Below are positions 9,543 through 27,735 of a DNA stretch of 32,000 nt, one piece after another. The position numbers and the translations under genes were made by a program. Every line of letters begins with the position of its first letter. Within the stretch, counting starts at the first letter, position 1. This DNA comes from Trichodesmium erythraeum IMS101 (lineage in GTDB: Bacteria > Cyanobacteriota > Cyanobacteriia > Cyanobacteriales > Microcoleaceae): NCBI RefSeq assembly GCF_000014265.1, contig NC_008312.1:3510001-3542000 (forward strand). Direction: 5' to 3'. The notes under the pieces are model-generated. The model made no database searches and was not told where the DNA came from. It saw only the letters and a program-made list of their open reading frames with translations.

Positions 9543-9563
9543 ATTTTCAACATAATAGAAATA

Positions 9564-12032: not shown

Positions 12033-12036
12033 AAAC

Positions 12037-12942
12037 ATGACACAAACAATTTTAGTTACTGGGGCTACAGGATTTGTGGGAAGTCATTTGGTTAGGCAAC
12101 TCCTGAATAAAGGCAATCGAGTTATTATTCTCAAGCGTAGTTTTTCTGAAACTAAAAGGATTGAGAATTGCCTGTCACAGATAACTGCTTATGACATAGA
12201 TCGGTGCAACATAGAAAAACCTTTTCAAGACTTTGGAAAAATTGATGCAGTAGTTCACACAGCAACGGCCACTGGTCGCCGTCAAGAGAGTCTTATAGAA
12301 ATATTTGAGGCTAATACTGCATTTCCTTTAAAATTGTTGAAAACAGCCAAAGATTTCCAGACCAAGACTTTTATTAATACGGATACTTATGTTAATAAAA
12401 GCAATATATTATATCAAGGATTAGAAAGCTACTCTCTTTCAAAAAAACATTTCCAGCAGTGGGGAAAACAAATTGCTCTAATTCATCAGATAAAGTTTTT
12501 GAATGTTAGATTAGAATACGTTTTTGGCCAAGGGGATTATCGTAACAAACTAATATCTTACGCGAGCCAGCAGTTTTTAAGCAATGCCTCTGAGTTAAAA
12601 TTCACTTCGGGGGAACAGCAACGAGATTTTATTCATGTTGAAGATGTAGTTTTGGCCTATCTTTTGCTGCTAGAAAAAGAATCGAAACCCTCACAATATT
12701 ATCAAGAATATGAAGTAGGAACAGGTAAAGCAACTTCATTGCGACAACTTCTAGAAATGTTGAAAGAATTAATGCAAGTTCAAACAGAATTAAAATTTGG
12801 AGCTTTACCTCAACGTCGGGGTGAAATTATGTTTTCTCAGGCTGACACTAAGACCATTGAAGAAATTGGTTGGTATCCGGCCAAAAGTTTAAAAGAACGT
12901 TTGATGCAAACCATTGAAGGTGAAAAAAAACTCAAAGATTAA
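12037..12942 (+). CDS. NAD(P)-dependent SDR epimerase/reductase, possibly an NDP-4-ketohexose reductase (similar in size to RfbJ/RfbS)
   Basis: 301 aa with the VTGATGFVGSHL glycine motif and the YSLSKKHFQ catalytic YxxxK. The specific function is inferred only from size and operon context. Confidence 0.5.
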   Translation: MTQTILVTGATGFVGSHLVRQLLNKGNRVIILKRSFSETKRIENCLSQITAYDIDRCNIEKPFQDFGKIDAVVHTATATGRRQESLIEIFEANTAFPLKLLKTAKDFQTKTFINTDTYVNKSNILYQGLESYSLSKKHFQQWGKQIALIHQIKFLNVRLEYVFGQGDYRNKLISYASQQFLSNASELKFTSGEQQRDFIHVEDVVLAYLLLLEKESKPSQYYQEYEVGTGKATSLRQLLEMLKELMQVQTELKFGALPQRRGEIMFSQADTKTIEEIGWYPAKSLKERLMQTIEGEKKLKD

Positions 12943-13029
12943 CTAGGTTGGCTCAAGACTATTTTTGACACATCAGCACATTGCTGATAGAATACTAAAA
13001 TTGTTTTACTTATATTATATTATTATATT

Positions 13030-13121
13030 CAGGACTTATGCAGAACCACTATATCTAGTAGGGGTCAACTGCCTTTAACCCCTACAGATGGTGTATATTT
13101 TCATATTTTGCGTAAGTCCTG
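13030..13121. mobile_element. 92-bp MITE-like element, copy B (TIR CAGGACTTATGCA ... TGCGTAAGTCCTG)
   Basis: It has the same length and architecture as copy A (5409-5500), including the inner hairpin GTAGGGGT..ACCCCTAC. It occupies 92 of the 199 nt between two genes of the sugar operon. Confidence 0.7.
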
Positions 13122-13141
13122 CATATTATCGAAAAAAATAA

Positions 13142-14452
13142 ATGACTCAATCAACTTCTTACTCTGAAATTACTAAATGCCGAGTTTGTGGCTCCGAAAA
13201 ACTTACTCCAGTTTTAAGTTTGGGCAGCCAACCTCTCAGTGGAATTTATCCGTCCCCTGACTCTCCAGATCCATCTACTTCTCCTTTAGATTTAGTAATT
13301 TGTGATAGTGAGGAAGGCTGTCGAACGTTGCAACTAAAACACAGTGCAGATGCATGGGAAATGTATGGTGATAACTATGGTTTTCTCTCCGCAACAAGTC
13401 CAACAATGTGCCGTCACTTACAAGGTATTGTTACAGAAGCTTTGGAACTGGTACAACCCAATCCTGGGGATGTGGTTTTAGACATCGCTTGCAATGATGG
13501 TACTTTACTGAACTTTTATCGCGATCGTAACCTAACTCGCATAGGCATGGATCCATCAAGTAAAAAATCTGCAGATAAATTTGATGCAGACATTCAAGTT
13601 ATCTATGATTTCTTTTCTGCTGATGGAGTACGGGAAATGGTGGGGGATAAGAAATGTAAAATCATTACTTCCATTGCCATGTTTTATGACCTGGAAGATC
13701 CAATAGACTTTATGAAGCAAATTCATTCTGTTTTAGCTCCAGATGGGATTTGGGTTTTTGAACTTTCCTATATGCCCCTGATGTTGAAAAATCTGACCTA
13801 CGGCCAGATTATGCACGAACATTTAACTTACCTGGGTTTGCAGCAAATTCAATGGATGGCAGAACGCGCTGACCTTAAAATACTCGATGTCAGTTTGAAT
13901 TTTATGCATGGTGGTAGTTTTCGGATTAAAGCTGCCCGCAAGGAGAATCCGATGAAGCCTAACCATGAGGCGATCGAGAAAATTCTTGATGCCGAAAAGC
14001 CCCTGGCAACAATGGCTCCTTTCGAGCGATTCCACAATCGGATTATTCAACATCGGCATGAGATACGAGCATTTTTTGATCTGATGCGATCTTCTGGTAA
14101 AAAAGTCTATGGCTATGGAGCTTCGACTAAGGGGAATATTGTTTTGAATTATTGTGGCATTACCCCACAAGATTTGATAGCTATTAGCGACCTGGAACCT
14201 CAAAAAGATGGTGCGGTTACGCCAGGAACTCGGATTCCAATTATAAGTCACGAAAAGCTACGAGAAATCCATCCTGATTATGCTCTGGTGTTGGCTTGGC
14301 ATTATCGTCCAGAAATCATTAATAGTGAGATTAACTACTTGGAAAAAGGTGGGAAATTGGTATTTGATTTACCGCGTCCCCATACTGTTAATTTGGAAAA
14401 TTATCAGTATTATTTGAATGCTTCCTTTGAAGACCTAGCTTTTTCTTTATAG
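13142..14452 (+). CDS. NDP-hexose C-methyltransferase (TylCIII/EvaC-like; zinc-ribbon + SAM-MT + C-methyltransferase C-terminal domain)
   Basis: N-terminal CRVCGS...LSLGSQPLSG...VICDSEEGC (4-Cys zinc-binding domain), SAM motif VVLDIACNDGTLL, and C-terminal VYGYGASTKGNIVLNYCGI. This matches the Methyltransf_13/_14 architecture as recalled. Confidence 0.8.
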   Translation: MTQSTSYSEITKCRVCGSEKLTPVLSLGSQPLSGIYPSPDSPDPSTSPLDLVICDSEEGCRTLQLKHSADAWEMYGDNYGFLSATSPTMCRHLQGIVTEALELVQPNPGDVVLDIACNDGTLLNFYRDRNLTRIGMDPSSKKSADKFDADIQVIYDFFSADGVREMVGDKKCKIITSIAMFYDLEDPIDFMKQIHSVLAPDGIWVFELSYMPLMLKNLTYGQIMHEHLTYLGLQQIQWMAERADLKILDVSLNFMHGGSFRIKAARKENPMKPNHEAIEKILDAEKPLATMAPFERFHNRIIQHRHEIRAFFDLMRSSGKKVYGYGASTKGNIVLNYCGITPQDLIAISDLEPQKDGAVTPGTRIPIISHEKLREIHPDYALVLAWHYRPEIINSEINYLEKGGKLVFDLPRPHTVNLENYQYYLNASFEDLAFSL

Positions 14453-14486
14453 ATTAAAGAATTGCTGCTGTTTTATGTTGGCCCGT

Positions 14487-14509
14487 AGAACAGACATCTT
14501 GTCTGTTCT
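14487..14509. terminator. Perfect 9-bp hairpin shared by the two convergent operons (candidate bidirectional terminator)
   Basis: AGAACAGAC-atctt-GTCTGTTCT lies between the stop codons at 14452 (+) and 14520 (-). The plus-strand T tract is weak (gtgtaggtttt) and there is no T tract on the minus strand. Confidence 0.45.
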
Positions 14510-14519
14510 GTGTAGGTTT

Positions 14520-17500
14520 TCATTGCCCTTTAAGTATTGCGGTAATTACTCTTTTCAATTTATCTATATTCATTTCAAAACCATTGAGCGTTTGGTCGCA
14601 ATATAGTGGGTAAAAATTATGTTGGCCCAATACAGATACAGGGTAAAAAAACCTATCTATAAGGTATCTACCGGTGAATATCTCGACAACAGTGGTATTT
14701 GGATGACACATAAGAATGCAGCTCAACCCTGCGCCAATAGCACCAACTAAAACAGAAGTGTGGTGCATTAACATCGCTTTCTCCTCAAAACTCAACCTTT
14801 CGGCATAAACAATCGAAAATCCCAAACTCGCCATCAATTCTTCTACTTCTACCTCGTTAGCCATCGGTCGGCGAGGAGAATACCTTCTGGAAATATACAC
14901 ATAACGAGCGCGATATTCTGGAGGTATATCCGAACGCTTTGCAACAATTGATTCTCTCAATTGTCTGTAAAAATCAATCCTGTCTATATCGTATTGATAA
15001 CGACTAATTATCAAGTATTTAAACTTCTGCTCTTGCTTTACCAAAATTTTCTCTTTTGGTATGTTCAAATGACTAAAGATTTCCCAGTGGCTATCCGTAA
15101 TTTGGGGAACAAATATTGGGCAGGATAAATTCAGCTTTTGATAGAGAATTAAGCTAGGAATTTGGTCTAGGAGTAAATGGGCGTAGTTCTGATATGCACC
15201 CCAAATATGACCGATAACAGCCAAACTGAAAATTACATCATCTTCGTAATAATTATCCAGTACTGTTTTCCTAATAGCAATCTCCTCTAAAGTTGCTCTA
15301 GTATTTGCCATCTGACTATAATTATCATCTGGCGCAACGTCTTCCCTCGAACTGGCAGTCTTTTCACCAATAAATTCCTTAACAAATTTATCAGATATTC
15401 TCGGGTCACAACGATGAAAAATATATCCCTCAGAAACACAAAATGGAGACTCGCAAATAAAATCCTTAAATATCTCTATGGTTTGCCTGCTTCTCAACTT
15501 AAACGAACCTGACAATTTCCGCACGGTAGCTACAAAATACTCCTTATCTCGATCCATTAACTCGGGTAAATATTTGACCGTAGCTTGTACCTGAAATTTT
15601 GGCACCCGTTCGTCCGCGCCCATTATATAGCGTACCGACGATGACAAACCATCAAAACACAACTTATCCATCAATGGCAGTGGAATTTCCGAGCGAATTA
15701 GTTTAACCCTTTTATACTCGCTACTATTTAATCTCTGGGATTCTTCTTTCAGAAGTTGGATAGCCATATTGAAGTGTTTTAATATTAACAAATAGGACTT
15801 TTTAGGAACCTCTTGAGTAGCAATAACTTGGGAAAACAATTCTTTTAATATCTTTAATTTTGGCAGCAAGGGAGGAGCATCCTTCGCTACGGGGGCAAGA
15901 TGATTACTTCTCCAATAAAATAGTACTTTATCTGTTAAGTTAGCTAAAGAAACAATATCCTTAATACTATCCGGTTGTTTCGTAACCAGTCGGTCGAGCA
16001 GCAAACCTAATTCCTGAATAGAAGTTAAAGATGTCCCCAGTAGTTTAACCTCTGGATATAAACCACGCTGCTGATGGAAACTTACAATCTCTTCGTACTT
16101 GGCGATCGCTTCACTCTCCCGACTCAAATTCTTTAACTCCACTGCCGCCAGTATATAAGCATCAATAGCTTTTTGAGGATGATAAAATTTAATCACTCGC
16201 TCAAATCTCTCCAGAGCTAACTCTCTATTTCCCTGTTGACTGGCTAAAATTCCGCCCTGGAGCAAGGTCGTTAAATCATTGGGATTCCTTTGCAAAGCCT
16301 GTAGAAATTTTTCCTCAGCCTCCGCAAAACGCCCCATAGCTATCAATTCCTTAGCCGCCTCACAGTATGCCGGAATATGCCCAGGGAACTTTTCGATCGC
16401 TTGTTCAAACCTTTGCCAGGCAAACTCCCGATTTCCCAACAGCCTCGCCAAAGCAGCACTTTTGTATAATCCTTCATGGCGAGCGGGATATAAAGCAATA
16501 ACTTTTTCCCACCAAATTTCTGCTTCCTCATACCTAAACAAATTAGCCAGTACATCCCCTTTTTGCAAATAAAAATTAAAATGGCCGGGAAACTTAGCAA
16601 TAGCATTTTCCCAACGCTCCAAAGCCAACTCCCAATCCCCTAAACTCTGAGTTAAAGCTGCACAACGTTCATAACCATCAGGCTGATTTGGATACTTTTC
16701 TATTAACTGTTGAAAAACCGCTTCTGCCTCATCAAAACGAGATAAATTGATTAAAGCATTGGCTTTTTGAACTTGAAAATCAATATTTTCGGGAAATTTG
16801 AATACCGCCTCCGACCACCGTTTTAATGCCAATTCCCAATCCCCTAAACTCTGAGTTAAAGCTGCATAACGTTCGTAACCATGAGGTCTATTTGGATACT
16901 TTTCTTTTAATTGTTGAAAAACCGCTTCTGCCTCATCAAAACGAGATAAATTGATTAAGGCATTGCCTTTTTGAACTTGAAAATCAATATTTTCGGGAAA
17001 TTTGAATACCGCCTCCGACCACCGTTTTAATGCCAATTCCCAATCCCCTAAACTCTGAGTTAAAGCTGCATAACGTTCGTAACCATGAGGTCTATTTGGA
17101 TACTTTTCTTTTAATTGTTGAAAAACCGCTTCTGCCTCATCAAAACGAGATAAATTGATTAAGGCATTGCCTTTTTGAACTTGAAAAACGATAGGTTTAG
17201 GAAATTTAATAATCGCCTCTGACCACAATTTTAATGCCAACTCCCCATCACCTAACCTATGAATTAATCTCGCATAATTCTCATAACCTTGAGGTTGATT
17301 TGGATACTTTTCTTTTAAATGTTGAAATACCGCTTTTGCTTCATCAAATCTGGCTAAATTGATTAAAGTATTACCTTTTTGAACTTGAAAACCGATATTT
17401 TCGGGGAATTTAAAAATCGCCTCCGACCACCGTTTTAATGCTAGTTCCCAATCCCCTAAACTCTGAGTTACCCTGGCATAACCATCATAACCATCTGGTA

Positions 17501-18161
17501 GTTCTGGATAAAATTTTATTAATTGTTGAAAAACCCTTTCTGCTGACTCAAATTTGCCTAAAGTCATTAAATTATTACCACAACTACGATAAATAGACAT
17601 CGGTTGTTGAGGATTCAGAATTAATGCTTGTTGATAAAATTCAACAGCTTCCTTGATCTTTCCTGCCTCGTTTAATTTATTCCCGTTATCGATACAATTG
17701 AGAGCAATATCTGTTTCCAAGCGAGAGATTTTTTGAGTTGCCAGAGAGTGATTTGGATGAAGAGAAAGGATTTTTTGCCAAGTCTTGAATGCCTGCCATA
17801 AATCTAATTTAGCCTCATAAGCTAAGGCTAAAGTTTGATTATAAATAGCCAAGTCTGGCTCTAGAAAAATAGCTTTTTGCGAATAGTTAATAGCCTCATC
17901 TAATTTCCCTTGCTCTATTAAAGCCTCCGCTAAACTATTGTGCAAGGTAGCAGAATTAGGATTGAGTTTAATGGCTTTTCTATATTGGGTAACTGCATCC
18001 TGCCATTTTCCTTGTTGAAAAAACAACTGCCCCAAGTAATAGTAATTCCAAGCAAAATTGGGCTGTAATTCGATGAGTTTTTGATACTCTTTTTGGGCAT
18101 CTTCTAATTTACCCGCCTGCAATAATTTGTTAGCGATTTTAAGGGAATTATTTGTGGCCAT
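14520..18161 (-). CDS. TPR-repeat (about 700 aa) / GT61 (DUF563, EOGT-like) glycosyltransferase fusion, 1213 aa
   Basis: The N-terminal 34-aa TPR periodicity includes seven 68-aa double-TPR units. The C-terminal ...RYVYISRRYSPRRPMANEVEVEELMASLGFSIVYAERLSFEEKAMLMHHTSVLVGAIGAGLSCILMCHPNTTVVEIF matches the Glyco_transf_61 core (yiSR..R.i.Ne.E....l...GF......ls..eq...f..a..ivg.hGAgl.n..f..p.t.viEi). Confidence 0.8.
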   Translation of the reverse strand: MATNNSLKIANKLLQAGKLEDAQKEYQKLIELQPNFAWNYYYLGQLFFQQGKWQDAVTQYRKAIKLNPNSATLHNSLAEALIEQGKLDEAINYSQKAIFLEPDLAIYNQTLALAYEAKLDLWQAFKTWQKILSLHPNHSLATQKISRLETDIALNCIDNGNKLNEAGKIKEAVEFYQQALILNPQQPMSIYRSCGNNLMTLGKFESAERVFQQLIKFYPELPDGYDGYARVTQSLGDWELALKRWSEAIFKFPENIGFQVQKGNTLINLARFDEAKAVFQHLKEKYPNQPQGYENYARLIHRLGDGELALKLWSEAIIKFPKPIVFQVQKGNALINLSRFDEAEAVFQQLKEKYPNRPHGYERYAALTQSLGDWELALKRWSEAVFKFPENIDFQVQKGNALINLSRFDEAEAVFQQLKEKYPNRPHGYERYAALTQSLGDWELALKRWSEAVFKFPENIDFQVQKANALINLSRFDEAEAVFQQLIEKYPNQPDGYERCAALTQSLGDWELALERWENAIAKFPGHFNFYLQKGDVLANLFRYEEAEIWWEKVIALYPARHEGLYKSAALARLLGNREFAWQRFEQAIEKFPGHIPAYCEAAKELIAMGRFAEAEEKFLQALQRNPNDLTTLLQGGILASQQGNRELALERFERVIKFYHPQKAIDAYILAAVELKNLSRESEAIAKYEEIVSFHQQRGLYPEVKLLGTSLTSIQELGLLLDRLVTKQPDSIKDIVSLANLTDKVLFYWRSNHLAPVAKDAPPLLPKLKILKELFSQVIATQEVPKKSYLLILKHFNMAIQLLKEESQRLNSSEYKRVKLIRSEIPLPLMDKLCFDGLSSSVRYIMGADERVPKFQVQATVKYLPELMDRDKEYFVATVRKLSGSFKLRSRQTIEIFKDFICESPFCVSEGYIFHRCDPRISDKFVKEFIGEKTASSREDVAPDDNYSQMANTRATLEEIAIRKTVLDNYYEDDVIFSLAVIGHIWGAYQNYAHLLLDQIPSLILYQKLNLSCPIFVPQITDSHWEIFSHLNIPKEKILVKQEQKFKYLIISRYQYDIDRIDFYRQLRESIVAKRSDIPPEYRARYVYISRRYSPRRPMANEVEVEELMASLGFSIVYAERLSFEEKAMLMHHTSVLVGAIGAGLSCILMCHPNTTVVEIFTGRYLIDRFFYPVSVLGQHNFYPLYCDQTLNGFEMNIDKLKRVITAILKGQ
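16124..17552 (-). repeat. 204-bp (68-codon, double-TPR) tandem repeat, 7 units; the central units are nearly identical
   Basis: The period was measured from TGAAAAACCG at 16711, 16915 and 17119. Units 16711-16914 and 16915-17118 differ at only 2 positions as read by eye. The flanking units become progressively more diverged. Confidence 0.9.
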
Positions 18162-18352
18162 AACTTTTGGGGAACTTTGGGTCTTAGGATTTTGATTTTA
18201 CACCATTTTTAATTAGGGTTTGCTGATTAAATATAAAAAACAGATAAAGGTTTTAGCCTTTTTAAGTCCTAAAAAATTACCTGGGTTTTGACTTTTGTCG
18301 TCACTTTCATGCAACAAAGCCCTATTTAATCTAAGTTGTGTAGCCACAATCT

Positions 18353-19612
18353 CTAAAGCGTTGCATCCGCCGAGGGCAAAAAGGACTTGACGTCAAAAAT
18401 AACTTGCCCGTCATTCTTAGCCAAAGGAAGCTGTTTAAATTCATCGTGGGCAACAGCCAGTACAATTGCCTGATAGCTAGCAAGTTTTGGTAGATCGCTT
18501 AAAATATCAATATCATGCTCCTGCTTAACCTCCTCTGGCAATGCCCAAGGGTCATAAACATCTACAACACAACCAAAATCTTCTAATTCACGAATTAAAT
18601 CTATTACTTTAGAATTACGAATATCCGAACAATTTTCCTTAAAAGTAATACCCAAAATTAGAACAGCAGCACCCTCAACTTTTTGCCCCTTTTTAATCGC
18701 GAGCTTAACAACCTGCTTAGCAACATAAATTCCCATATTATCATTGAGGCGTCGTCCTGCAAGAATAATTTCTGGGTGATAGCCTAGTTCCTGGGCCTTG
18801 TACGTTAAATAGTATGGATCTACTCCGATACAGTGTCCCCCCACCAGTCCTGGTTGAAAAGGCAAGAAATTCCATTTAGTAGCGGCTGCCTCTAACACTT
18901 CCCTAGTTTTGATCCCCATTTTATTAAAAATAATCGCCAACTCATTGACAAAAGCAATATTAATATCTCGTTGAGAGTTTTCAATTACTTTAGCTGCCTC
19001 AGCAACTCTTATAGAAGATGCTAAATGGGTTCCAGCTATGACAATCGTATTATAGAGTGCATCAACTTTTTGAGCTATTTCAGGCGTCGAACCTGAAGTG
19101 ACTTTTTTAACTTTGGTAACTGTGTGTATCTTGTCACCAGGATTAATGCGCTCAGGGGAGTAACCACAGAAAAAGTCTTGGTTAAATTTTAAACCTGAAA
19201 TCTTTTCTAACACAGGAACGCATTCTTCCTCTGTTGTGCCCGGATAAACAGTAGATTCATAAATGACTATATCATCCTTTTTAAGAATTTTACCAACTGC
19301 TTCGCTGGCTTGAATTAAAGGAACTAAATTTGGTTGTTTGTGTCGGTCAATCGGAGTTGGTACAGTTACAATATAAATATTGCAATTAGCAATATCCTCA
19401 ATAGAGGTGGTGACGCGAAATCCTGTTTCAGATATAACTGAAGCTAAATAATCGTTGTCAACTTCGAGGGTGCTATCAAATCCTTGATTCAGTTGTTCAA
19501 CTCGCGTTTGTGAAATGTCAAACCCAAGGGTTGGAAACTTTTGAGCAAATTCAACCGCAAGGGGTAAACCAACATATCCTAAACCAATCACAGCTATTTT
19601 AATGTTCTGCAT
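18353..19612 (-). CDS. UDP-N-acetyl-hexosamine 6-dehydrogenase (TviB/WbpO-type nucleotide-sugar dehydrogenase)
   Basis: 419 aa. [46 protein letters not shown] closely follows the TviB/WbpO N-terminus. The catalytic-Cys segment is [12 protein letters not shown]. Confidence 0.8.
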
Positions 19613-19655
19613 TTTTTATTTGATGAAAAATATACTTTATTTTTTTGCACAAAAA

Positions 19656-22600
19656 TTAATCAACAGACCAGCTTTCAAAAAAGGTTGCATCTGTTGGAAA
19701 TTTTTTAAAGTATTCATAATGGCTAACACCTGATATTGAGATCATCACAACCGTTTCATAAAAAACTGGAAACTCAAATTTAAACCCCTGAATCTTAGGT
19801 GGATGTTTTGATGAATCGAAGTGATGCTGATCTATGGGAGCATTAATCGACTGTACATGGTTGTCATCAGAGGACAAAATTGGTTTTTTACCATGAATTG
19901 AAAACTTCTGCAAAAGCCCTTCATCTTTTAACTCCTTCATTAACTTAAACAAAGATAGAGTAGTCATCTGATTCGGATGTCCAGTCCAATCAGAGAAAAA
20001 CAATTTGAGTCCATTTTGGAATAAATAACCATCCGCATCAAAATAGGGTTGCTTGATAAAAACAAAATCAGTAGATACTTGGCAAGCTTTTCGTACAAAA
20101 GCTTTAACATCGTTTTCGCTTGGCAAATTCTGAAGTAAGTGGGAGAGAACTGTAAATCTTACCAGTTTTTTTGTAGGAATATTGTTTATATCAAATATCA
20201 CAGCATTATGACCAGCAGCTTTCGCTTGAGCTATCTTTTTGGGATCGATATCAATTCCCAAACCCTGTTTACCACCAAAAAGGCGTTTGCTCCAGTTTAG
20301 GGAATTTCCTTTTGAACAACCAAAGTCAAGATAGTCAAAATTTCCTTCCCGCAATATTTTTATGAATTCATCTCTTGGGTTAATAGATATTTTTTCCGCA
20401 TTGGATATTCTATAATTTTTTGTATCATCAGAATCGGGGTTAATAACAAATTCTTTAATTCTCTCAAATGCAAATTTCCAATCCATTTTTTTTGTTGTTT
20501 CTAGCCCTCCTTTGATAATTTGCTCCCTTAGTTGGTTATTTTCTAATAAACGAATAATGTTTCCAGCAACATCATCGGGTAAGAGAGACGATAACAGTGA
20601 ATTTTGTTCGTGCTGAAAAAGCCATGAAGTTCCTAAGTTATAATTACTAACTGTAGCACAGCCTGAAGCCATATATTCAAGAGGTTGGTAGGATGGATGT
20701 GGGGTCAGCATAAAGACTAAGCCCACATGACTATTTCCATAAAGCTCTGCTACTTTTTCCAAGCTGTCAAGCACACCTAAGTTCTCAATAATGCTTTCGA
20801 GGCCATAATCCTTGGGATTCCAATCGCTACCAACAGAGACGATTCTTACATTGTCCTGGAAATGTAACTTGACAAGCTTTAAAGCCTCAATCCCCAGAAC
20901 AAAAGCATTTCTTTTATTTTTCGGTCTGCCATAAAATACAACTTGCCACGGTAGTTTGTTTTTACTATAAGGTTTCGGATAATAAATACTCCGATCTATT
21001 CCCGGAGTGAAGTATGTTACATTATCTCCATATTGCTTGTACTTTTCCGCTATTCCTAAAGAATTGGCAATGCAATGAAAACCAAAGCGGTAAGTCATAT
21101 CAATCGTTCCACTCACGCTACCAGCTGGATAGAATAACGACTCATCATCTTGCATAAAGTAAAATTTGGCTTGGCAATTATTGTATCGAGCAAGTAGATA
21201 AGCTGTATGCCAAGCTGTGCAAAAAGCTATATCTGTTCTGGGAATTTCTTTTGGGTTATCATCAAAATTAAAAACAATTAATTCAAAATTTAGGTCAGGG
21301 AAGAATTTTTTTATTGTAGATTTGTCTAAAAATACCTCTGTCGGAGAAGTCATTTGAATTAAAAAAACGTTTTTACTATTCCAGGACCGTGAAAATTCCT
21401 CGGCTACCATAAATACAGTTCTAATTCCTCCCGCTAATATATTTCGACAGTTAGGGATAATCCATAACACTTTTCCTGGAGGCTCTTCTAAGGGCTTACC
21501 TCTCATGTTTTCAGTAAAAACGCTGTTCTCCTGTAGCTCCTGTAATGAAATTTTTACCAGCAGTAGCTCTTTAGGAAAAATTACCGAATTTATTTTTGTG
21601 AGCTGACTTAAATCGTAGTTGGCTAATTTTTGGGGAGAATCTGACGGTCCAGAGCTTTCTGGCAAATTTGTGCTTTTCGGTAGATCGGAGCTTTCTGGCA
21701 AATTTGTGTTTTTCGGCACAGATGAAAGTTTAGTAAGTCCCTTTTCTAGAACTTCAACGCCATAATACTCCCCAGCATAAGCCCGTAAACGTTTAAGAAA
21801 TGGATGAAAATTTAGAGAAATCACAGCTCTTTTGATTCGTTTCTCTCCATGTCTGGCTCTTAGTGCATTCCCACCTGCTTCAGCAAGGACACTTCTAGTT
21901 TCCGCACCAAAACTCTTTGATTTGGCATGAAAAACATAGCAATGGGTTGCCAATGCATGGGTAAAACCTGCATTCAAGGCGCGCATAGAATAATCATCTT
22001 CCTCCCCATATCCTTTGGGAAAAGCTTCTTCATCAAAGTAGCCAATAGCATCAATAACTTCGCGCTTTATACCATAACAAAAACCATTAATTAAAGGAAC
22101 CCGGGGGAAATGCCCAAACCAACCGTATTGCTCGCAGAACTTATCCATGTCAGCTACAGTCTTGCCCTCTGGAAGTTCATTGATTATCATTCCACCGTTC
22201 TTTGGATCTTTGACAAAAGGTAATGATTGCCATGATGCTGCATTACTCATGGGACCTACTACACCTATCAAATTACTACTCGTTGCAGTTTGCAAAAGTT
22301 TCAAAGCCCAGTCTGGGCTTACTATAGTATCACTATTTAAAAGAATAACAAACTCCGCATCAGCAATCTGCATTCCTAAATTTGCAGATTTTGTGTAACC
22401 CTTAGCTATCTCATGTCGAACTAAAGTAATGCTATGGTTTTGTGCAGCAATCTGTTTTAGGTAGTCCCAGGTGTCATGATCAGAACCGTCATCCACAATA
22501 ATAATCTTATGGCTTGGCAAAAGATTGACAAGCACAGAATTAATACAATTTTTAACATGCTCAAGGGCATTGTGTACACAAATGACAATATCAATAGGAA

Positions 22601-24458
22601 AAGCACTTATGCTTTTTAAGGAATTTCGATCGTAAGGCTTAGTTTTTGAGTGCCAAAATGGAGTTTGTTCAAAGGCAAATTCTTTAGGCAGGAAAGAGGG
22701 TATCTGATAGGGGATATCTCTTGTGGTAGATCTTAACCCATGCTGAAAGAAGCCAAATCCTGGGTGGTTTCTTGTTGATCGCCCTTTCTTCATCAATGGA
22801 ATCCACTTTAAGTCAGTTTTCCATAGAGCAAACATTACGGAAAGCTGGTCTCTTTTACTATATTTTTCTATTTCTTCCCACCATAAATTGTGCAAGTTCC
22901 TAATACAATTGTCGTTATGTTTACGAATCATAACACCTGTCTCTATTAATCCTAATTCATAGGGCAGACCTTCCTGTTGATAGTGAGTAGTTTGCTCTTC
23001 AATTGTATCTTTGTCGTCTTTCTCTTGCTGGCTACATATATTAGCTTCTTGATAAGTACAATTCCTATATGGGTGAGGGATAGCTGCAAACAATTGCTGA
23101 TTTTTGATAAAACTATTCAGAAACTCCTCCAGAAAATTGGATTTAACCAGAATGTGCGCATCTATCCAGATACTATACTCATAGTTATTGAAATAAATAT
23201 GAGGATGTGTTTTTACATATCGAGCAGTGCGAGTGCTATCTTCATGTATGTAATCGAAATGACGAATTTCCCAACAATGCTCCCCTGGATATTGCGCTCT
23301 ATCCGTAAAGCAAACATAATCCCAGTCAGGGCATAAAAACTCTGGTATTTTTAATACATCATAGTTATTGCAAATGGCTGTATAAACAACCACGTTCTTT
23401 TTTTTGGACTTTGACGCCTTTAAATATTTCCGCACCCTTTCTAGCAACTGCTTATCTGCAATCTGTTTAGGACTTACAGACTCAGTATCAATCTGTTGCC
23501 CCCGCTGATAAACCTTAACAGCCTCCTCCCTCTTCCCCAACTCCCTCAAAACATTCCCTAAGTGCTGCCAAACCACGGCAGATGCTGGATGCAACTCCGC
23601 TGCCTTCCGTAACTCAATCTCTGCCTGGACCCAATACTTCAACTGCATCAAAGCATACCCCAAATGATGCCGAAACTCAGCCGACTTCGGATTAATTTCC
23701 ACTACTAACCGATACTTAACAACCGCCTCCTCCCATCGACCCAACTGCGACAAAGCTTGACCAAACCCAAACAAAAACTCCTCAGACTCATCAAACAGAT
23801 GTGCGCTCTGACGATAACATTCCACAACTTCCGACCATCGTCCCAACTTACCCAAACTTGCAGCCCAACCCATACAGCATTCCAATTTACCATAATTAGT
23901 TTCCCAACTCTGACGATAAAATTTCACCGCTTCAGACCATTGCTGTTGCCCAAACTTTATGTCTCCCAAGTAAAAATAAGCCTCTGATACATAGAATGTC
24001 ATTAAGGAAGTTCCATATACCTGCTTTGCCTCCTCCTCTAGAGGGAGAGAGTCAACACAGAAGTCAACCACCTGATAGAGAGATTCCTCCGCGTCCGACC
24101 ATTGTCCCAAATGCACCAATGCCCTCCCTAAACTTAAATAAAACTCCGGCACATTTGTTTTCTTTTCCACCGCTTGCCGCAAATAACCCACAGCTTCCTT
24201 ATACTGGCCTAACTTGTTTAACATTGCCCCTAACTTATAAAGAGACCAAGCAGAATTAGGGTTGATGGCCAATGCCTCACGAAAAGCAGCAGCAGCTTCT
24301 TTGATGCGTCCTGCTTTGATCAATGCCTCTCCTAAATTATGGTGAGAACAATAGAATTGGTTACTTTTAGTGGTGGCCTTTTTGTAAAAAGCGATCGCTT
24401 CCTCTATTTTTCCTTCCTTAAATAGTTGATTTGCCTGAGCGAAAGAAGTAGCAGTCAT
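19656..24458 (-). CDS. 1600-aa five-module protein: TPR (about 24458-23470), DUF616/TOD1-MUCI70-like (about 23400-22780), GT2 (about 22600-21900), GT-B WsaF-like (about 21470-20470), class-I SAM methyltransferase (about 20340-19900)
   Basis: DUF616: VVVYTAICNNYDVLKIPEF...WDYVCFTD...RTARYVKTHPHIYFNNYEYSIWIDAHILV. GT2: IDIVICVHNALEHVKNCINSVL...IIIVDDGSDHDT...ILLNSDTIV. A linker carries a 36-bp direct repeat (21652-21723; PK(N/S)TNLPESS). GT-B: VLWIIPNCRNILAGGIRTVF...FYGRPKNKRNAF...PLEYMASGCATVSN. MT: FDYLDFGCSKGNSL...GLGIDIDPKKI. Confidence 0.8.
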   Translation of the reverse strand: MTATSFAQANQLFKEGKIEEAIAFYKKATTKSNQFYCSHHNLGEALIKAGRIKEAAAAFREALAINPNSAWSLYKLGAMLNKLGQYKEAVGYLRQAVEKKTNVPEFYLSLGRALVHLGQWSDAEESLYQVVDFCVDSLPLEEEAKQVYGTSLMTFYVSEAYFYLGDIKFGQQQWSEAVKFYRQSWETNYGKLECCMGWAASLGKLGRWSEVVECYRQSAHLFDESEEFLFGFGQALSQLGRWEEAVVKYRLVVEINPKSAEFRHHLGYALMQLKYWVQAEIELRKAAELHPASAVVWQHLGNVLRELGKREEAVKVYQRGQQIDTESVSPKQIADKQLLERVRKYLKASKSKKKNVVVYTAICNNYDVLKIPEFLCPDWDYVCFTDRAQYPGEHCWEIRHFDYIHEDSTRTARYVKTHPHIYFNNYEYSIWIDAHILVKSNFLEEFLNSFIKNQQLFAAIPHPYRNCTYQEANICSQQEKDDKDTIEEQTTHYQQEGLPYELGLIETGVMIRKHNDNCIRNLHNLWWEEIEKYSKRDQLSVMFALWKTDLKWIPLMKKGRSTRNHPGFGFFQHGLRSTTRDIPYQIPSFLPKEFAFEQTPFWHSKTKPYDRNSLKSISAFPIDIVICVHNALEHVKNCINSVLVNLLPSHKIIIVDDGSDHDTWDYLKQIAAQNHSITLVRHEIAKGYTKSANLGMQIADAEFVILLNSDTIVSPDWALKLLQTATSSNLIGVVGPMSNAASWQSLPFVKDPKNGGMIINELPEGKTVADMDKFCEQYGWFGHFPRVPLINGFCYGIKREVIDAIGYFDEEAFPKGYGEEDDYSMRALNAGFTHALATHCYVFHAKSKSFGAETRSVLAEAGGNALRARHGEKRIKRAVISLNFHPFLKRLRAYAGEYYGVEVLEKGLTKLSSVPKNTNLPESSDLPKSTNLPESSGPSDSPQKLANYDLSQLTKINSVIFPKELLLVKISLQELQENSVFTENMRGKPLEEPPGKVLWIIPNCRNILAGGIRTVFMVAEEFSRSWNSKNVFLIQMTSPTEVFLDKSTIKKFFPDLNFELIVFNFDDNPKEIPRTDIAFCTAWHTAYLLARYNNCQAKFYFMQDDESLFYPAGSVSGTIDMTYRFGFHCIANSLGIAEKYKQYGDNVTYFTPGIDRSIYYPKPYSKNKLPWQVVFYGRPKNKRNAFVLGIEALKLVKLHFQDNVRIVSVGSDWNPKDYGLESIIENLGVLDSLEKVAELYGNSHVGLVFMLTPHPSYQPLEYMASGCATVSNYNLGTSWLFQHEQNSLLSSLLPDDVAGNIIRLLENNQLREQIIKGGLETTKKMDWKFAFERIKEFVINPDSDDTKNYRISNAEKISINPRDEFIKILREGNFDYLDFGCSKGNSLNWSKRLFGGKQGLGIDIDPKKIAQAKAAGHNAVIFDINNIPTKKLVRFTVLSHLLQNLPSENDVKAFVRKACQVSTDFVFIKQPYFDADGYLFQNGLKLFFSDWTGHPNQMTTLSLFKLMKELKDEGLLQKFSIHGKKPILSSDDNHVQSINAPIDQHHFDSSKHPPKIQGFKFEFPVFYETVVMISISGVSHYEYFKKFPTDATFFESWSVD

Positions 24459-24695
24459 TTTTTGAATCTTAATTTAAAAATAAGTTTTAGGGACTAAATT
24501 CTAAGCTTAAAGTATAAGGCGAGCTGTAGTAATGGAAGGAAAATGTACGCGCTTGGCTGTAAAGCATACCCTTCAATAGATGATATATTTTGTCTAAGTA
24601 TTTTGTTAGTTATTATGGGCCTTGCTGAATTTAGGGATTAATGTAGAATCTAACTGCAAAAATCACTAACTATACACCACTACCTATGATTTAAA

Positions 24696-24708
24696 CAGGA
24701 CTTACGCA
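24696..24708. repeat. Solo MITE terminal repeat (CAGGACTTACGCA)
   Basis: It exactly matches the TIR consensus of the 92-bp elements. Its left flank (TTAAA) resembles that of copy A, and I found no partner TIR within about 150 nt. Confidence 0.5.
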
Positions 24709-24975
24709 TTTTTTTGTGCACATATAGTGTTGACCGTCACCAGAGATATTAAGAAGTTCAAACCCTACTTCAGCAAACATTTCTGAACTATAATCATAAT
24801 CCAACTGTCATAATAATTCTTATTGGTTTTTATTGATAACTCTCCTTCAGTTTTTTTAGTCAAATTAATTGGTGTTATTGAATTAAGGGATGAATCTATA
24901 AGGGAACAGACACATTCCAAAACTTGTCGAAACTCTTTCATACAATATCATTCCGATACGCAAATACGTAACTCC

Positions 24976-25600
24976 AATTAATTTAATTCCTTAGTCCATC
25001 TATTGGAATTTTTCGGACTTGAAGTATAGTAAAAGTTATACAGCAAATTAAGTCGTATATAGTCAAATTAATATCAAATATTTTCGCGCTATTTTTACTA
25101 ACCAGCTACTAAAATATTTGACAAAATTTAATAACTATCTCCAATACGTTTAATAGTAGAATCAAACTATCTAAGAATTAAAGAATAAATGACAATAATC
25201 ATAAAAATTAATAAATACTCAGAGCATATAGTAGAATCAAACTATCTAAGAATTAAAGAATAAATGACAATAATCATAAAAATTAATAAATACTCAGAGC
25301 ATTTAGTGATTTGAAATCCTTAATTTATGAGATTAGTTAAGAGACATATTATTCAGAAAAATTATCGGTTTTATGCTTAAATTTACCCACTGTATTTCTT
25401 GTATAAAAATCTTTATAACTGTGCTAATTATTTAATTCGTAAGTCGGGGGTCCTTGAAAAGACTTATCGTCACTATTATGAGCTACAAAATATACTGCAA
25501 TCCCAACCATAAACTTAAATTTTTAAGTATTTTTTAAGTAGGTATAATATTTTCCTGATTTTCCTAGTGTGATGTCTTTTTCTATAAATCCTGCTTTTTT
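24976..25600 (-). pseudogene. Heavily decayed paralogue of the 26404-26937 gene; boundaries approximate
   Basis: 24976-25028 is about three-quarters identical to 26402-26454, and both encode ...TKELN-stop on the minus strand. The fragment 25424-25510 (MVGIAVYFVAHNSDDKS...) resembles LGAFFVIPAYKPEGK of the other copy. No long ORF remains. Confidence 0.3.
25153..25302. repeat. Perfect 2 x 75-bp tandem direct repeat
   Basis: The unit ATAGTAGAATCAAACTATCTAAGAATTAAAGAATAAATGACAATAATCATAAAAATTAATAAATACTCAGAGCAT occurs at 25153-25227 and again, with no mismatch read, at 25228-25302. Confidence 0.9.
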
Positions 25601-25617
25601 AGAATCATAGTATAGGT

Positions 25618-26215
25618 TTAATAATTGAGTAATTGAAGTTTTACTGTGTGTTGTTCTAATAACTCCTCATTTTCATAAAAAAAATAATCAAGAATAGCAT
25701 AACATTCATTTTTAATTAATTCAGTAGTCGCAATTCTTTTATTAACAATACCATTATCCAATTTCACTAAATTATCTCCATAAGCATTAAAAGCACTAAT
25801 TATTAACAGACCTCCTGCTTGAAGATATTTAGAAACAAAATCCAAGCTTTTCTGTATATATCAAAAACTAAAAATGTGGCTAGCCAACATTGTTTCTGAT
25901 TTGGGATTGCTATTTAAAAAAAAACGTCTACGCAGCACCACGAGAATAAGCCACATCGAATTTTTTACCAATATCTAACTCAGAAACATTTTGAAAATAT
26001 AAATCAACTTTTTTTCCTAGTCTTTTTTGAGCTTCTTCTAATAAAGATTCACTAGTATCAATTCCAGTTATTCTATAGTCAGGTTCAATTTGCAGTAAAT
26101 TTTCTACTATTAAAGCAGTACCTATTCCTATATCCAATAAATCTCTAGCTTATCCCATTATTTGAGCAAGGTCAGTAGCAATTTCATAATAATTTCTATT
26201 TTTTTTGAACAGCAT
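25618..26215 (-). pseudogene. Class-I SAM-dependent methyltransferase pseudogene with at least 3 lesions
   Basis: The minus-strand ATG at 26215 gives MLFKKNRNYYEIATDLAQIMG. An in-frame TAA follows at 26150-26152, then ARDLLDIGIGTALIVENLL...GIDTSESLLEEAQKRL (SAM motif I). A stop at 25925-25927 and a frameshift come next, and then ...SLDFVSKYLQAGGLLIISAF (post-motif II) lies in another frame. Confidence 0.7.
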
Positions 26216-26403
26216 CACTATAAAATTTAGCAACTCCTTAATATTAATTGTTCATTAGTTCAAATGCTCCTACTTAAAAATTATATTTTTTTCTAGTTTA
26301 CGGTACTTTTTAAGATAGTAAGTAGAGTTTATTACTAATCTTTTTCCCAGGTTCTCTCAACCTATCAAACTTTGTAACTCATTAACTAAAAAAATGCTGT
26401 AAA

Positions 26404-26937
26404 TTAATTTAATTCTTTAGTCAATATATTGAGATTTTCTGGAGTTGGAGTATGAATATAAGCATGTTTTTTAGATAAAAACTTTGCCCCTGTCTCCGTT
26501 TCCATTTCTGTAATTATTCTGGCAAAACCAGCATTTTTAGTTACTTCATGAACTTGATAAACAATCGCATTCAAAACCTCATAGCGGAACTTTAGGTGTA
26601 ATTCGATAGTAAAAATCCACCCTAAATCACAATCTTTTTTCCCTTCTGGTTTATAAGCAGGAATAACAAAAAAAGCTCCCAGAATATTGTTATCTAAATC
26701 TAGTGCAATAATATGCTTTATACCTTCTTGATAAGGTTCCCTAAGATTTTTTAAAGTATGTTCTGCTCGACGAGTTCTGACAAAATTATCATTAAACTCT
26801 GAATCTACAAATACTCTATATAAAATTGCGTCAATCTCATCCCAACAATTGAAGACAAATTAATAATCAACAACTTTTATTTGATAATCTCTTTTTGATT
26901 TATTTAAATGAAATGTATTATTAGTTATCTCTGACAT
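26404..26937 (-). pseudogene. 177-codon gene of uncertain function (possibly acetyltransferase/GNAT-like fold) with an in-frame TAA at codon 26
   Basis: Codons were translated by hand from the ATG at 26937: MSEITNNTFHLNKSKRDYQIKVVDY, then TAA (26860-26862), then FVFNCWDEIDAILYRVFVDSEF...IIALDLDNNILGAFFVIPAYKPEGKKDCDLGWIFTIELHLKFRYEVLNAIVYQVHEVTKNAGFARIITEMETETGAKFLSKK...TKELN, with the stop at 26404-26406. It is absent from the ORF track because the long part has no start codon. Confidence 0.5.
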
Positions 26938-27006
26938 AATTTAGTTTATACCTTTAGTAATTAACATTATTAAAAACTTGATAACTATCTAATTCGATTA
27001 TAATAA

Positions 27007-27735
27007 TCAAAACTGAAATTTATCACCCAAATAATATTGACGTACTAAGGGGTTGTTATAAAGTTCTTCTGCTGTTCCAGATGCCAAAATTTGTCCATCT
27101 CGCATAATATAAGCTCTATCTGTAATTTCCAAAGTTTCTCTCACATTATGATCCGTAATTAAGATGCCCATCTTTTGTTCTCCTAACTTTGCTACTATCT
27201 TTTGAATTTCCGAAATAGCTATGGGATCAACCCCCGCAAATGGTTCATCTAAAAACAAAAATTTCAGTCCATCTCGGTTAGAAGCTAAAGCTCTAGCTAG
27301 TTCTGTTCGCCGACGTTCTCCCCCTGAAACTTGAGAACCATTAGTAGAAGCTATTTTTTCTAAACGAAACTCATTTAATAGAAACTCTAAGCGCTGTTTC
27401 CATTCACGACGAGGCACTTTTGTTTGTTCTAAGACCAAGAGAATATTATCTTTGACACTAAGGTTACGAAAAATACTAGGTTCCTGAGCTAGATAACCAA
27501 TACCAAGTTTTGCTCTTTTATCCATTGGTAAAGCTGTTATATCTAACTCATTAAAAAAAACAGTACCCAGGGAAGGTTTTTCTAGACCCGTAGCAATATA
27601 AAATGTAGTAGTTTTACCAGCACCATTAGGACCGAGTAAGCCAACAATTTCTCCCTGATCAATAAATATATTAACTCGACTCACAACGGCACGACTACCA
27701 TAATATTTGTGAATATTCTCAAGAACAATTTTCAT
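27007..27735 (-). CDS. lptB: LPS export ABC transporter ATP-binding protein
   Basis: MKIVLENIHKYYGSRAVVSRVNIFIDQGEIVGLLGPNGAGKTTTFY (Walker A), LSGGERRRTELARAL (signature motif) and FLFLDEPFAGVDP (Walker B). The ATG at 27735 is preferred over the listed TTG at 27753. The size of about 242 aa fits LptB. Confidence 0.85.
   Translation of the reverse strand: MKIVLENIHKYYGSRAVVSRVNIFIDQGEIVGLLGPNGAGKTTTFYIATGLEKPSLGTVFFNELDITALPMDKRAKLGIGYLAQEPSIFRNLSVKDNILLVLEQTKVPRREWKQRLEFLLNEFRLEKIASTNGSQVSGGERRRTELARALASNRDGLKFLFLDEPFAGVDPIAISEIQKIVAKLGEQKMGILITDHNVRETLEITDRAYIMRDGQILASGTAEELYNNPLVRQYYLGDKFQF

Follow-up and report, generated by a model that had tools for sequence, protein, structure and literature searches.

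Soluble glycosyltransferases (GTs) without transmembrane (TM) helices are the norm in pathways that depend on ATP-binding cassette (ABC) transporters. We analyzed a stretch of 32,000 nucleotides from Trichodesmium erythraeum IMS101 (referred to as the window) that contains three co-oriented genes for two large, soluble proteins with tetratricopeptide repeat (TPR) arrays and for a sugar-nucleotide dehydrogenase. By analogy to the closest described systems, we assign a probability of about 0.55 to the reading that these genes are responsible for polymerization and capping in the cytoplasm, within a pathway of the ABC-transporter-dependent type that makes an acidic surface heteroglycan with deoxyhexose. 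Genes at other loci would take care of initiation and export, and scaffolding would be the role of the TPR arrays. The product is most likely a cell-surface heteroglycan of the O-antigen, capsule or sheath/exopolysaccharide (EPS) type.

In Geobacillus stearothermophilus NRS 2004/3a, the soluble enzymes WsaE and WsaF assemble glycan repeats on a lipid-bound primer initiated by WsaP (review, PMC2943079). The methyltransferase domain of WsaE caps the chain, Wzt binds the capped chain and Wzm/Wzt carry out the export; only after this step does the oligosaccharyltransferase WsaB transfer the glycan onto the S-layer protein (PMC2943079). The capsule polymerases Cps3D, Cps7D and Cps1B of Actinobacillus pleuropneumoniae (group 2 capsules) consist of a TPR domain of 260-400 aa fused to two catalytic modules (PMC11666461, PMC5974469). 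For Cps3D and Cps7D it was shown that the TPR domain mediates dimerization or oligomerization and is essential for the elongation of the lipid-linked primer (PMC11666461; PMC5974469). TPR domains are also found in enzymes that modify proteins directly. The TPR domain of FlmG (aa 1-313) binds flagellins and is required for cytoplasmic O-glycosylation (PMC7591256), and a cyanobacterial TPR-Ogt encoded next to pilA glycosylates pilin (PMC12288463). Since TPRs occur in the Cps capsule polymerases as well as in the protein glycosyltransferases FlmG and Ogt, a TPR array alone is not diagnostic of function.

The three genes of the window encode the following products, each of which is 100 % identical to the T. 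erythraeum IMS101 protein given in brackets:

19656-24458, minus strand: G1600 (ABG51496.1), soluble protein of 1600 aa with five modules: TPR, TOD1-MUCI70 (GT116-like), GT2, WsaF-type GT-B and S-adenosylmethionine (SAM)-dependent methyltransferase
18353-19612, minus strand: predicted TviB/WbpO-type UDP-N-acetylhexosamine 6-dehydrogenase (ABG51495.1), 419 aa, assigned with NCBIfam and Pfam
14520-18161, minus strand: G1213 (ABG51494.1), soluble TPR-GT61 fusion of 1213 aa

The open reading frame (ORF) coordinates agree exactly with the three co-oriented genes and the gaps of 43 bp (behind G1600) and 191 bp (in front of G1213) listed in an initial annotation of this DNA. Their co-orientation and the same three-gene order at a related cyanobacterial locus (L001, see below) suggest that they form an operon. 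A scan for promoters and terminators gave counts equal to the shuffled expectation and is uninformative on co-transcription. G1600 is composed of the following modules:

23469-24458, minus strand: TPR array of 9 repeats (aa 1 to ~330)
22812-23249, minus strand: TOD1_MUCI70 module, formerly DUF616, GT116-like (aa 404-549; Pfam PF04765)
21891-22589, minus strand: GT2 module of the GT-A type (aa 624-856; PF00535, E 8e-24)
20490-21464, minus strand: WsaF-type GT-B module (aa ~999-1323; PF22772 WsaF_C and PDB match)
19659-20354, minus strand: C-terminal class I SAM-methyltransferase-like module, weak match (aa ~1369-1600; Methyltransf_11)

The TOD1_MUCI70 match has an E-value of 2e-18 to 6e-20 (67-72 bits, cut-off 21.4) and covers profile positions 138-290 of 314 only. 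The closest solved structures of the GT2 module are the chondroitin synthase K4CP (5e-12) and heparosan synthase. The GT-B module is matched by WsaF_C (E 1e-24, 87-89 bits, cut-off 27), weakly by WsaF_N (19.3 bits) and by the solved structure of WsaF (PDB entries 2x0d/2x0e) with an E-value of 2e-24 over chain residues 51-378 of 413. The WsaF_C and structure-sequence matches place it in the WsaF family (GT4-like), with a putative rhamnosyl donor specificity. The C-terminal module scores just above the gathering (GA) threshold of Methyltransf_11 (23.9 versus 21.2 bits), which is a weak match; other Trichodesmium metagenome-assembled genomes (MAGs) have a gene of its own for this stretch, with 232 aa and the annotation 'class I SAM-dependent methyltransferase'. 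A Kyte-Doolittle scan with a 19-residue window revealed no TM helix in G1600 (maximum 1.35), with the MscS protein of the window as positive control (peak 2.86).

In several Trichodesmium MAGs and metagenomes, G1600 is found at 99 % identity but called as two genes (P0254-P0266). The splits are located at aa ~405 between the TPR and catalytic parts, at ~1335/1369 between GT-B and methyltransferase and at ~1256/1263 inside WsaF_C, the last being a frameshift. These calls reflect modular detachment, decay in some populations or assembly errors.

G1600 shares with WsaE/WsaF the soluble nature of the transferases and the combination of GT modules with a methyltransferase, in G1600 a putative chain-capping one, and its GT-B module is a relative of WsaF. 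In WsaE, however, the methyltransferase is N-terminal and neither a TPR nor a GT116-like module is present. The genes wsaE/F are located directly downstream of wzm-wzt in a cluster with wsaP and wsaB, whereas none of these lies near the Trichodesmium genes. The initial annotation had named WsaE/WsaF as a precedent for building a glycan directly on protein. The S-layer glycan and its methyl cap are correct, but the chain is extended on a lipid-bound primer (PMC2943079), and therefore the precedent argues for a lipid carrier. The Cps polymerases resemble the Trichodesmium proteins in being soluble polypeptides (1100-1300 aa) of TPRs and catalytic modules. They differ in the modules themselves (TagF-like phosphotransferase with GT-A or GT-B instead of GT116/GT2/GT4/methyltransferase or GT61), in the position of their genes within kps-type loci and in the size of the TPR domain (260-400 aa versus up to ~630 aa). 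No TagF-type domain was found among the Pfam matches, and the resemblance to Cps3D is architectural, via the TPRs only. WbdA/WbdD of Escherichia coli O9a and related Wzm/Wzt O-polysaccharide systems with Wzt_C likewise comprise a multi-domain polymerizing GT and a methyltransferase that terminates the chain with a cap, which the C-terminal domain of Wzt recognizes. WbdD, however, is a separate kinase-methyltransferase with a coiled-coil ruler, and the system lacks TPR, GT116-like and GT61 modules. Among the features of ABC-transporter-dependent assembly systems, soluble multi-domain GTs are present in the window, with three GT modules in one chain and no TM helix.

The GT116 founders RGGAT1/MUCI70 transfer galacturonic acid (GalA) onto rhamnose-terminated rhamnogalacturonan I (RG-I) (PMC13010939). 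They have PF04765 in common with G1600, paired with an activity of the rhamnosyltransferase type and a source of uronic acid. In plants, the enzymes act on pectin as type II membrane proteins of the Golgi, whereas the module of G1600 is one of five in a soluble protein. By analogy, the GalA-onto-rhamnose chemistry matches the presence of GT116-like and rhamnosyltransferase-like modules beside a putative uronic-acid dehydrogenase.

An indication for the type of pathway comes from the gene neighborhoods of homologs. TPR-less versions of the TOD1-GT2-WsaF core of G1600 are widespread (Hydrogenophaga, Thiorhodococcus, Methylocaldum, Planctomycetota, Sneathiella), and fusions of the core to sulfotransferase, methyltransferase, rhamnan-synthesis-F or pyruvyltransferase modules are frequent. 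The closest TPR-less homolog, a Hydrogenophaga protein (P0125), is 61-62 % identical across the whole core. Its gene is flanked by genes for ABC2_membrane and ABC_tran proteins (KpsM/T), a Poly_export protein (KpsD) and three Capsule_synth proteins (KpsC/S), which by domain assignment is a textbook ABC-transporter-dependent (Kps-type) capsule locus. Two more homolog loci contain Poly_export, TviD_N, GT47, sulfotransferases and polysaccharide lyase. We searched the flanks of 80 genomic loci with core homologs, 56 of them with at least 15 kb of flank. A pair of permease and ABC-ATPase was present within 10 kb at 23 of the 80 loci (19/56 for those with at least 15 kb). This pair was located upstream and co-oriented in 20 of the 23 cases, which is the classical wzm-wzt-GT order. 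Pfam confirmed ABC2_membrane in 19 of 22 permeases tested (two are opp-type false positives) and Wzt_C in 12 of 15 long ATPases. Wzm/Wzt within 10 kb are hence found at ~30 % of the well-flanked loci, compared to a few per cent that we estimate for 20 kb chosen at random. The Wzt_C domain recognizes a capped glycan terminus, which fits a terminal methyltransferase on G1600.

The sugar-nucleotide genes are also in line with a surface polysaccharide. The 419-aa dehydrogenase reaches 565.9 bits with NF011729 (TviB; cut-off 592) and 411 bits with TIGR03026 and contains three UDPG_MGDP_dh domains. It is predicted to be a near-equivalog of TviB, i.e. a TviB/WbpO-type UDP-N-acetylglucosamine (UDP-GlcNAc) 6-dehydrogenase. 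Downstream of G1213 two further features were identified:

7321-14452, plus strand: convergent sugar-nucleotide operon (Pfam/NCBIfam)
14484-14512: hairpin with a 13-bp stem in the 67-bp spacer separating the two convergent operons, candidate bidirectional terminator

The convergent operon encodes RfbF (glucose-1-phosphate cytidylyltransferase, passing the equivalog threshold) and RfbH (CDP-6-deoxy-4-hexulose 3-dehydrase, 658 bits), together with a short-chain dehydrogenase/reductase (SDR, 370 aa), a UDP-Glc 6-dehydrogenase, an SDR/epimerase (301 aa) and an NDP-hexose C-methyltransferase. Judged by these gene products, the region would supply a CDP-3,6-dideoxy (possibly C-methyl) hexose, sugars derived from UDP-glucuronic acid (UDP-GlcA) and a UDP-N-acetylhexosaminuronic acid (UDP-HexNAcA). 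Both the RfbF/RfbH route to 3,6-dideoxyhexose and uronic-acid dehydrogenases belong to the classical repertoire of surface-polysaccharide synthesis.

G1213 is composed as follows:

16272-18161, minus strand: TPR array of ~18 repeats (aa 1 to ~630)
16624-17543, minus strand: tandem repeat of 204 nt (68 aa, two TPRs), 4.5 copies, 87 % identity, inside the TPR array
14685-15185, minus strand: GT61 core (aa 993-1159; PF04577, 69.6-71.1 bits, GA 27)

With an E-value of 4e-19 for PF04577, the sequence-based assignment of G1213 to GT61 is solid. Its invariant motifs are N-Y-A-H (aa 992-995) and SRRYSPRR..NE (aa 1091-1103). GT61 enzymes use an N-R-R constellation for UDP binding, and EOGT contains N245/H248 (PMC13123520). 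A trimmed profile of the G1213 GT61 family retrieved only POMGNT2 (E 0.007) and EOGT (E 0.28) from the solved structures; an earlier, untrimmed profile had been swamped by residual TPRs and did not reach them, and phmmer with the GT61 region found nothing in the PDB. The Arg pair of SRRYSPRR..NE aligns with 'ART-QNR..NE' of POMGNT2 (profile E 0.007). N-Y-A-H has the same N-x-x-H spacing as N245/H248 of EOGT, in a region outside every alignment. PF04577 is shared with EOGT, POMGNT2 and the plant enzymes XAT/XylT. The eukaryotic enzymes, however, are lumenal, membrane-anchored or secreted and lack TPRs, and the relation is remote (profile E 0.007 to 0.28). An AlphaFold2 model of the C-terminal 513 aa based on an 8-sequence alignment was unusable (mean pLDDT 48.6, pTM 0.36). 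GT61 acceptors are proteins in animals and polysaccharides in plants, and hence the acceptor type of G1213 is not readable from its family. In Vibrio, a DUF563/GT61 gene is part of a sulfated-capsule cluster with kpsDMET, kpsS and wecA (PMC11641403). Close relatives of the G1213 GT61 domain were found in filamentous cyanobacteria only; a metagenome scan for such relatives returned a single locus.

The hydrophobicity maximum of G1213 (1.72 at aa 1134-1154; MscS: 2.86) is located within the catalytic domain. In the profile alignment, this segment coincides with the strand-helix 'MLVSMHGAQLVTTLFL', which is buried in the Rossmann core of POMGNT2, and we therefore rejected it as a TM helix. The Kyte-Doolittle analysis is in agreement with the initial annotation, which had seen no TM-length run in either giant. 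Its domain calls, including GT61, DUF616 and GT-B, are backed by the Pfam, NCBIfam and PDB searches (weakly for the methyltransferase).

Both TPR arrays are close to the consensus. Their top PDB matches are engineered consensus TPR proteins (E 4e-63 and 7e-85 for the two arrays), and the TPR domain of Cps3D matches as well (E 3e-10). The best natural solved match of both arrays is human OGT (2e-37 and 1e-45), followed by SPINDLY, which taken at face value speaks for protein acceptors and against scaffolds. We rejected this similarity as support for protein recruitment, because engineered TPRs score higher and Cps3D matches, too, which makes it non-discriminating. In the TPR lumen of OGT, a conserved asparagine ladder anchors the peptide backbone of the substrates (PMC11145291). 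The arrays of G1600 and G1213 are only 23-25 % identical, and a common docking module of both giants was rejected for this reason. At TPR position 6, which we take to be the position of the OGT ladder, Asn is present in only 1/9 repeats of G1600 and 1/18 repeats of G1213, i.e. an OGT-type ladder is absent. The initial annotation had taken the TPR arrays for acceptor-recruiting modules. This does not follow, given the missing ladder and the occurrence of TPRs in Cps3D, Cps7D and Cps1B.

In G1213, Asn occupies TPR position 9 in 7/18 and position 13 in 5/18 repeats, i.e. in every second repeat. In the duplicated units of aa 256-527 (window ~16581-17396), every second repeat has Asn at positions 9 and 13 ('KGNALIN'), whereas the OGT-type position 6 is Gln or Arg. 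The lengths of TPR-GT61 orthologs range from 813 to 1349 aa. Together with the tandem 68-aa units this indicates that the length of the array is evolving, and it suggests an ongoing expansion and contraction of the TPR superhelix, with a recent expansion by 68-aa repeats; the superhelix is possibly a spacer or ruler.

Related loci were found in other cyanobacteria. Locus L001 (MAG GCA_034190295.1) has the same arrangement as the window, with a 1623-aa G1600 ortholog, a 419-aa dehydrogenase and a 1349-aa TPR-GT61 protein. These genes are convergent with an operon for a C-methyltransferase, an epimerase, an RmlC-like protein, a dehydratase and a nucleotidyltransferase. In the Okeania locus L086 (1-12442) the TPR-GT61 gene is convergent with a CDP-deoxyhexose operon and preceded by genes for a TPR-GT1 giant, a sulfotransferase and a TPR-sulfotransferase. 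Both L001 and L086 thus keep the convergent arrangement of TPR-GT61 and a CDP-deoxyhexose operon. The metagenomic locus L085 (1-15527) encodes TPR-GT4-GT1-sulfotransferase, sulfotransferase-FkbM methyltransferase, TPR-GT61, RfbT-like methyltransferase and TPR-GT2-GT1 proteins. No membrane protein is encoded in L001, L085 or L086. Arrays 45-62 % identical to that of G1213 are fused to Sulfotransfer_2 domains in Trichodesmium and Okeania (P0016, P0023-P0027, P0031, P0058). Since TPR fusions to many classes of carbohydrate-active enzymes are seen across L001, L085 and L086, we regard them as a trait of the lineage. We found no description of these fusions, or of the architecture of either giant, in the literature.

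Within the window, Pfam and NCBIfam searches of all larger ORFs detected no WbaP/WecA, Wzx/Wzy/Wzz or Wzm/Wzt. LptB is its sole ABC component, and apart from MscS it encodes no polytopic membrane protein. Syntenic Trichodesmium contigs, which extend ~10 kb past the MscS (right) end and ~2.7 kb past the left end, contain no initiating or export machinery either; these flanks hold alkane-biosynthesis genes, an aldehyde dehydrogenase, a glutamine amidotransferase and the LamG protein described below. Over ~17 kb on either side of the three genes there is no initiating transferase, flippase or Wzm/Wzt. The absence reported in the initial annotation therefore holds for the window and for the syntenic flanks just outside it. 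At distant loci, however, IMS101 encodes a KpsM/Wzm ABC-2 permease (Tery_1363, 2.09 Mb), KpsF (Tery_3105) and a Wzx-like protein (Tery_1710) (Pereira et al., PMC4594306), and elsewhere Wza (Tery_1924, Tery_2691), Wzc (Tery_1925, Tery_2688) and Wzy/WaaL-type (Wzy_C) proteins (Tery_3696, Tery_4577) (PMC4594306). Cyanobacterial EPS/O-antigen genes are described as present in multiple, scattered copies per genome (PMC8620461), and the local absence of carrier-lipid genes is therefore weak evidence. The earlier step from this absence and the TPRs to a glycan built directly on protein is not supported in view of the scattered genes, the norm of soluble GTs and the Kps and Wzm-Wzt contexts of the homologs.

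Upstream of G1600 and in the same orientation are located MscS, an LptA-like gene, lptB and decayed methyltransferase fragments:

28187-28705, minus strand: LptA/OstA-like periplasmic protein
27007-27753, minus strand: LptB, passing the equivalog threshold

The position of LptB and the LptA-like protein upstream of the transferase operon hints weakly at a lipopolysaccharide (LPS) connection; the adjacency is not kept at the orthologous locus L001. The spacer between lptB and G1600 (24459-27006) is 2.5 kb long and AT-rich (26-28 % GC). It contains a 75-nt repeat (25153-25307, 2.1 copies, 98 % identity) and, at 25618-26137 on the minus strand, a likely pseudogene of a class I SAM-methyltransferase (motif I 'DIGIGTA') in two neighboring ORF fragments, co-oriented with the operon.

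An ORF that is open at the left edge of the window (3-1928, plus strand) and lies 12.6 kb downstream of G1213 codes for a LamG (Laminin_G_3) protein. In a syntenic MAG (L088) the protein has 798 aa with two LamG copies. The LamG part is followed by a 27-nt tandem repeat (582-1648, 39.5 copies, 86 % matches) encoding a Thr/Asp/Gly-rich, mucin-like region with the unit DGTDTTSTT, and by a C-terminal domain of ~90 aa. An antisense ORF at 533-1624 was rejected as an artefact of this repeat. Some Limnospira/Arthrospira homologs of TPR-GTs contain a LamG_3 domain within the same polypeptide (P0124, P0080). Further to the right, a 440-aa protein (3220-4542, plus strand) shows the unusual combination of an N-terminal FadA-like coiled coil with a class A beta-lactamase-family (Beta-lactamase2) domain. 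Between its gene and the sugar-nucleotide operon lies a DDE_3-family transposase gene (4594-5331, plus strand, E 5e-36), which is found at the same place in three syntenic Trichodesmium contigs.

Starting from the observed domain identities, solubility, conserved synteny and genomic context of the homologs, we infer a lipid acceptor, an ABC export route, the sugars used and a role for the TPRs, and propose the following pathway. The dehydrogenase would make UDP-GlcNAcA or UDP-GalNAcA, and the neighboring operon would supply sugars made from UDP-GlcA as well as a CDP-3,6-dideoxyhexose that may be C-methyl-branched. G1600 would act as a multi-domain polymerase like WbdA, WsaE/WsaF or K4CP, with the GT116-like, GT2 and WsaF-type modules adding successive residues of the repeat. 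Its C-terminal methyltransferase would then cap the non-reducing end. G1213 may add a further residue or a side branch through its GT61 domain. Synthesis would take place on a lipid-linked primer at the inner membrane face, and other parts of the genome would encode the initiating enzyme and an exporter of the Wzm/Wzt or Kps type. As in Cps3D, the TPR arrays would function in oligomerization and scaffolding and keep the soluble enzymes together near the primer or transporter, rather than clamp acceptor proteins. The finished glycan could be ligated to lipid A-core, released or possibly passed en bloc to protein. The function proposed initially, i.e. several enzymes that elongate and methyl-terminate a glycan, is plausible.

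Several observations weigh against this proposal. The window and the loci L001, L085 and L086 contain no initiating transferase or transporter within 10 kb, and the link to a lipid carrier is therefore made entirely by analogy. Outside the cyanobacteria, ~70 % of the homolog loci have no Wzm/Wzt pair nearby, and many matches in the census are limited to GT2, or to GT2 plus WsaF, within the core. The distribution of KpsC/KpsS in cyanobacteria is confined (PMC4594306), which makes a strict Kps-type pathway unlikely. The assignment of the capping methyltransferase is weak. The TPR arrays are of unusual length, with 18 repeats in G1213, and their presence on GT1, GT2, GT4, GT61 and sulfotransferase modules in this lineage could equally mean a shared protein target.

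Of the alternatives, the direct route of the initial annotation survives best, although we consider it unlikely. In that case the TPRs would bind an unfolded or Ser/Thr-rich acceptor protein in the cytoplasm, the transferases would start and extend a methyl-capped O-glycan on it with no need for a lipid carrier, in the manner of FlmG, Maf, GtfA/B or OGT, and the glycoprotein would be secreted. The mechanism itself is real and the idea is not refuted, since FlmG (PMC7591256) and the pilin TPR-Ogt (PMC12288463) perform direct, TPR-guided O-glycosylation. Like the two giants, FlmG of Caulobacter, the pilin Ogt, OGT and SPINDLY are soluble and cytoplasmic, with N-terminal TPRs and a C-terminal GT-B domain. 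They differ in having a single GT that adds one sugar directly to Ser/Thr, and in their catalytic families (GT41 for OGT); the GT41 catalytic domain PF13844 has no match in G1600 or G1213. Further points in favor are the four cyanobacterial loci without a nearby lipid-carrier or export gene, the pervasive TPR fusion in the lineage, OGT as the best natural TPR match, Asn at the concave-face positions 9 and 13 in every second repeat of G1213, the nearby Thr-rich, mucin-like LamG protein, a conceivable O-glycosylation acceptor, and the fact that EOGT and POMGNT2, the only solved relatives of the G1213 domain, both act on protein-linked acceptors. The LamG neighbor, the absent membrane components and the pervasive TPR fusion are, however, not specific for direct protein glycosylation. 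Direct flagellin or pilin glycosyltransferases of the FlmG/Maf type combine an acceptor-binding domain (TPR or other) with a single GT and are genetically linked to the gene of their acceptor and to a nonulosonic-acid pathway. An acceptor gene conserved in synteny is missing: L001, L085 and L086 have no Thr-rich or LamG neighbor, cyanobacteria have no flagellin, and no flagellin or pilin gene or Pse/Leg pathway is present in the window or in these three loci. The TPR similarity is generic, with engineered proteins scoring best, the two arrays differ from each other and the asparagine ladder is absent. Finally, the catalytic core is common in capsule and O-polysaccharide loci with ABC exporters, the WsaE/WsaF precedent is lipid-linked, and a three-GT polymerase with a capping methyltransferase and a 3,6-dideoxyhexose supply is typical of polysaccharides.

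A broader form of this idea would be a membrane-independent, TPR-tethered assembly line in filamentous marine cyanobacteria (Trichodesmium, Okeania and relatives) that builds a glycan directly on a common protein in the cytoplasm, which we regard as improbable. In this reading nearly every enzyme (GT116-like/GT2/GT4/methyltransferase, GT61, GT1 and sulfotransferases) would dock onto the common protein through a TPR array of its own. The protein, for instance the Thr-rich LamG protein, would receive a long acidic, methylated or sulfated glycan, and the expanding 68-aa units would tune reach or chain length.

Also improbable is that the glycan is made on a lipid and then moved en bloc to a protein (an S-layer, pilin or sheath glycoprotein) by a Wzy_C-type O-oligosaccharyltransferase like WsaB of Geobacillus or PglL of Neisseria. 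The WsaF-type module and the logic of the methyl cap stem from such a system (PMC2943079), homolog loci with Wzm/Wzt occur in Paenibacillus (L051), IMS101 possesses the Wzy_C-type proteins Tery_3696 and Tery_4577, and the Thr-rich LamG protein is encoded nearby. The co-oriented LptB/LptA-like genes immediately upstream, by contrast, point weakly to LPS, albeit in an adjacency that is not conserved. To our knowledge, no S-layer glycoprotein has been described in Trichodesmium. A soluble product made without a lipid link (for example a glycosylated small molecule or glycolipid, or else a polysaccharide with an unrecognized export route) by a TPR-organized soluble metabolon would account for the absence of membrane components at every cyanobacterial locus, the TPR fusions to sulfotransferases and methyltransferases and the ~70 % of homolog loci without an ABC pair, but is very unlikely, as there is no positive evidence for it, no PKS or NRPS gene is adjacent and the domain set and its relatives are of the polysaccharide type.

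Both fusion architectures and the lineage-wide TPR tethering appear to be uncharacterized, as the initial annotation had stated for the two giants. Trichodesmium is a globally important marine nitrogen fixer, and the polymers on its surface govern how colonies form, how particles are captured and how carbon is exported. The five-module polymerase and the TPR-GT61 protein, fed with uronic acids and a CDP-dideoxyhexose, are a candidate for a surface-polymer pathway of this organism. Plant pectin and xylan enzymes as well as animal EOGT and POMGNT2 have bacterial relatives in the GT116-like and GT61 modules, which, being soluble, may serve for biochemistry. If the direct-protein reading were true, the locus would represent a new class of bacterial cytoplasmic protein-glycosylation machinery. 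With polymerization and capping in an ABC-transporter-dependent-type pathway as the preferred reading, the TPR fusions of this lineage could show how soluble polysaccharide synthases are organized when the genes of a pathway are scattered.

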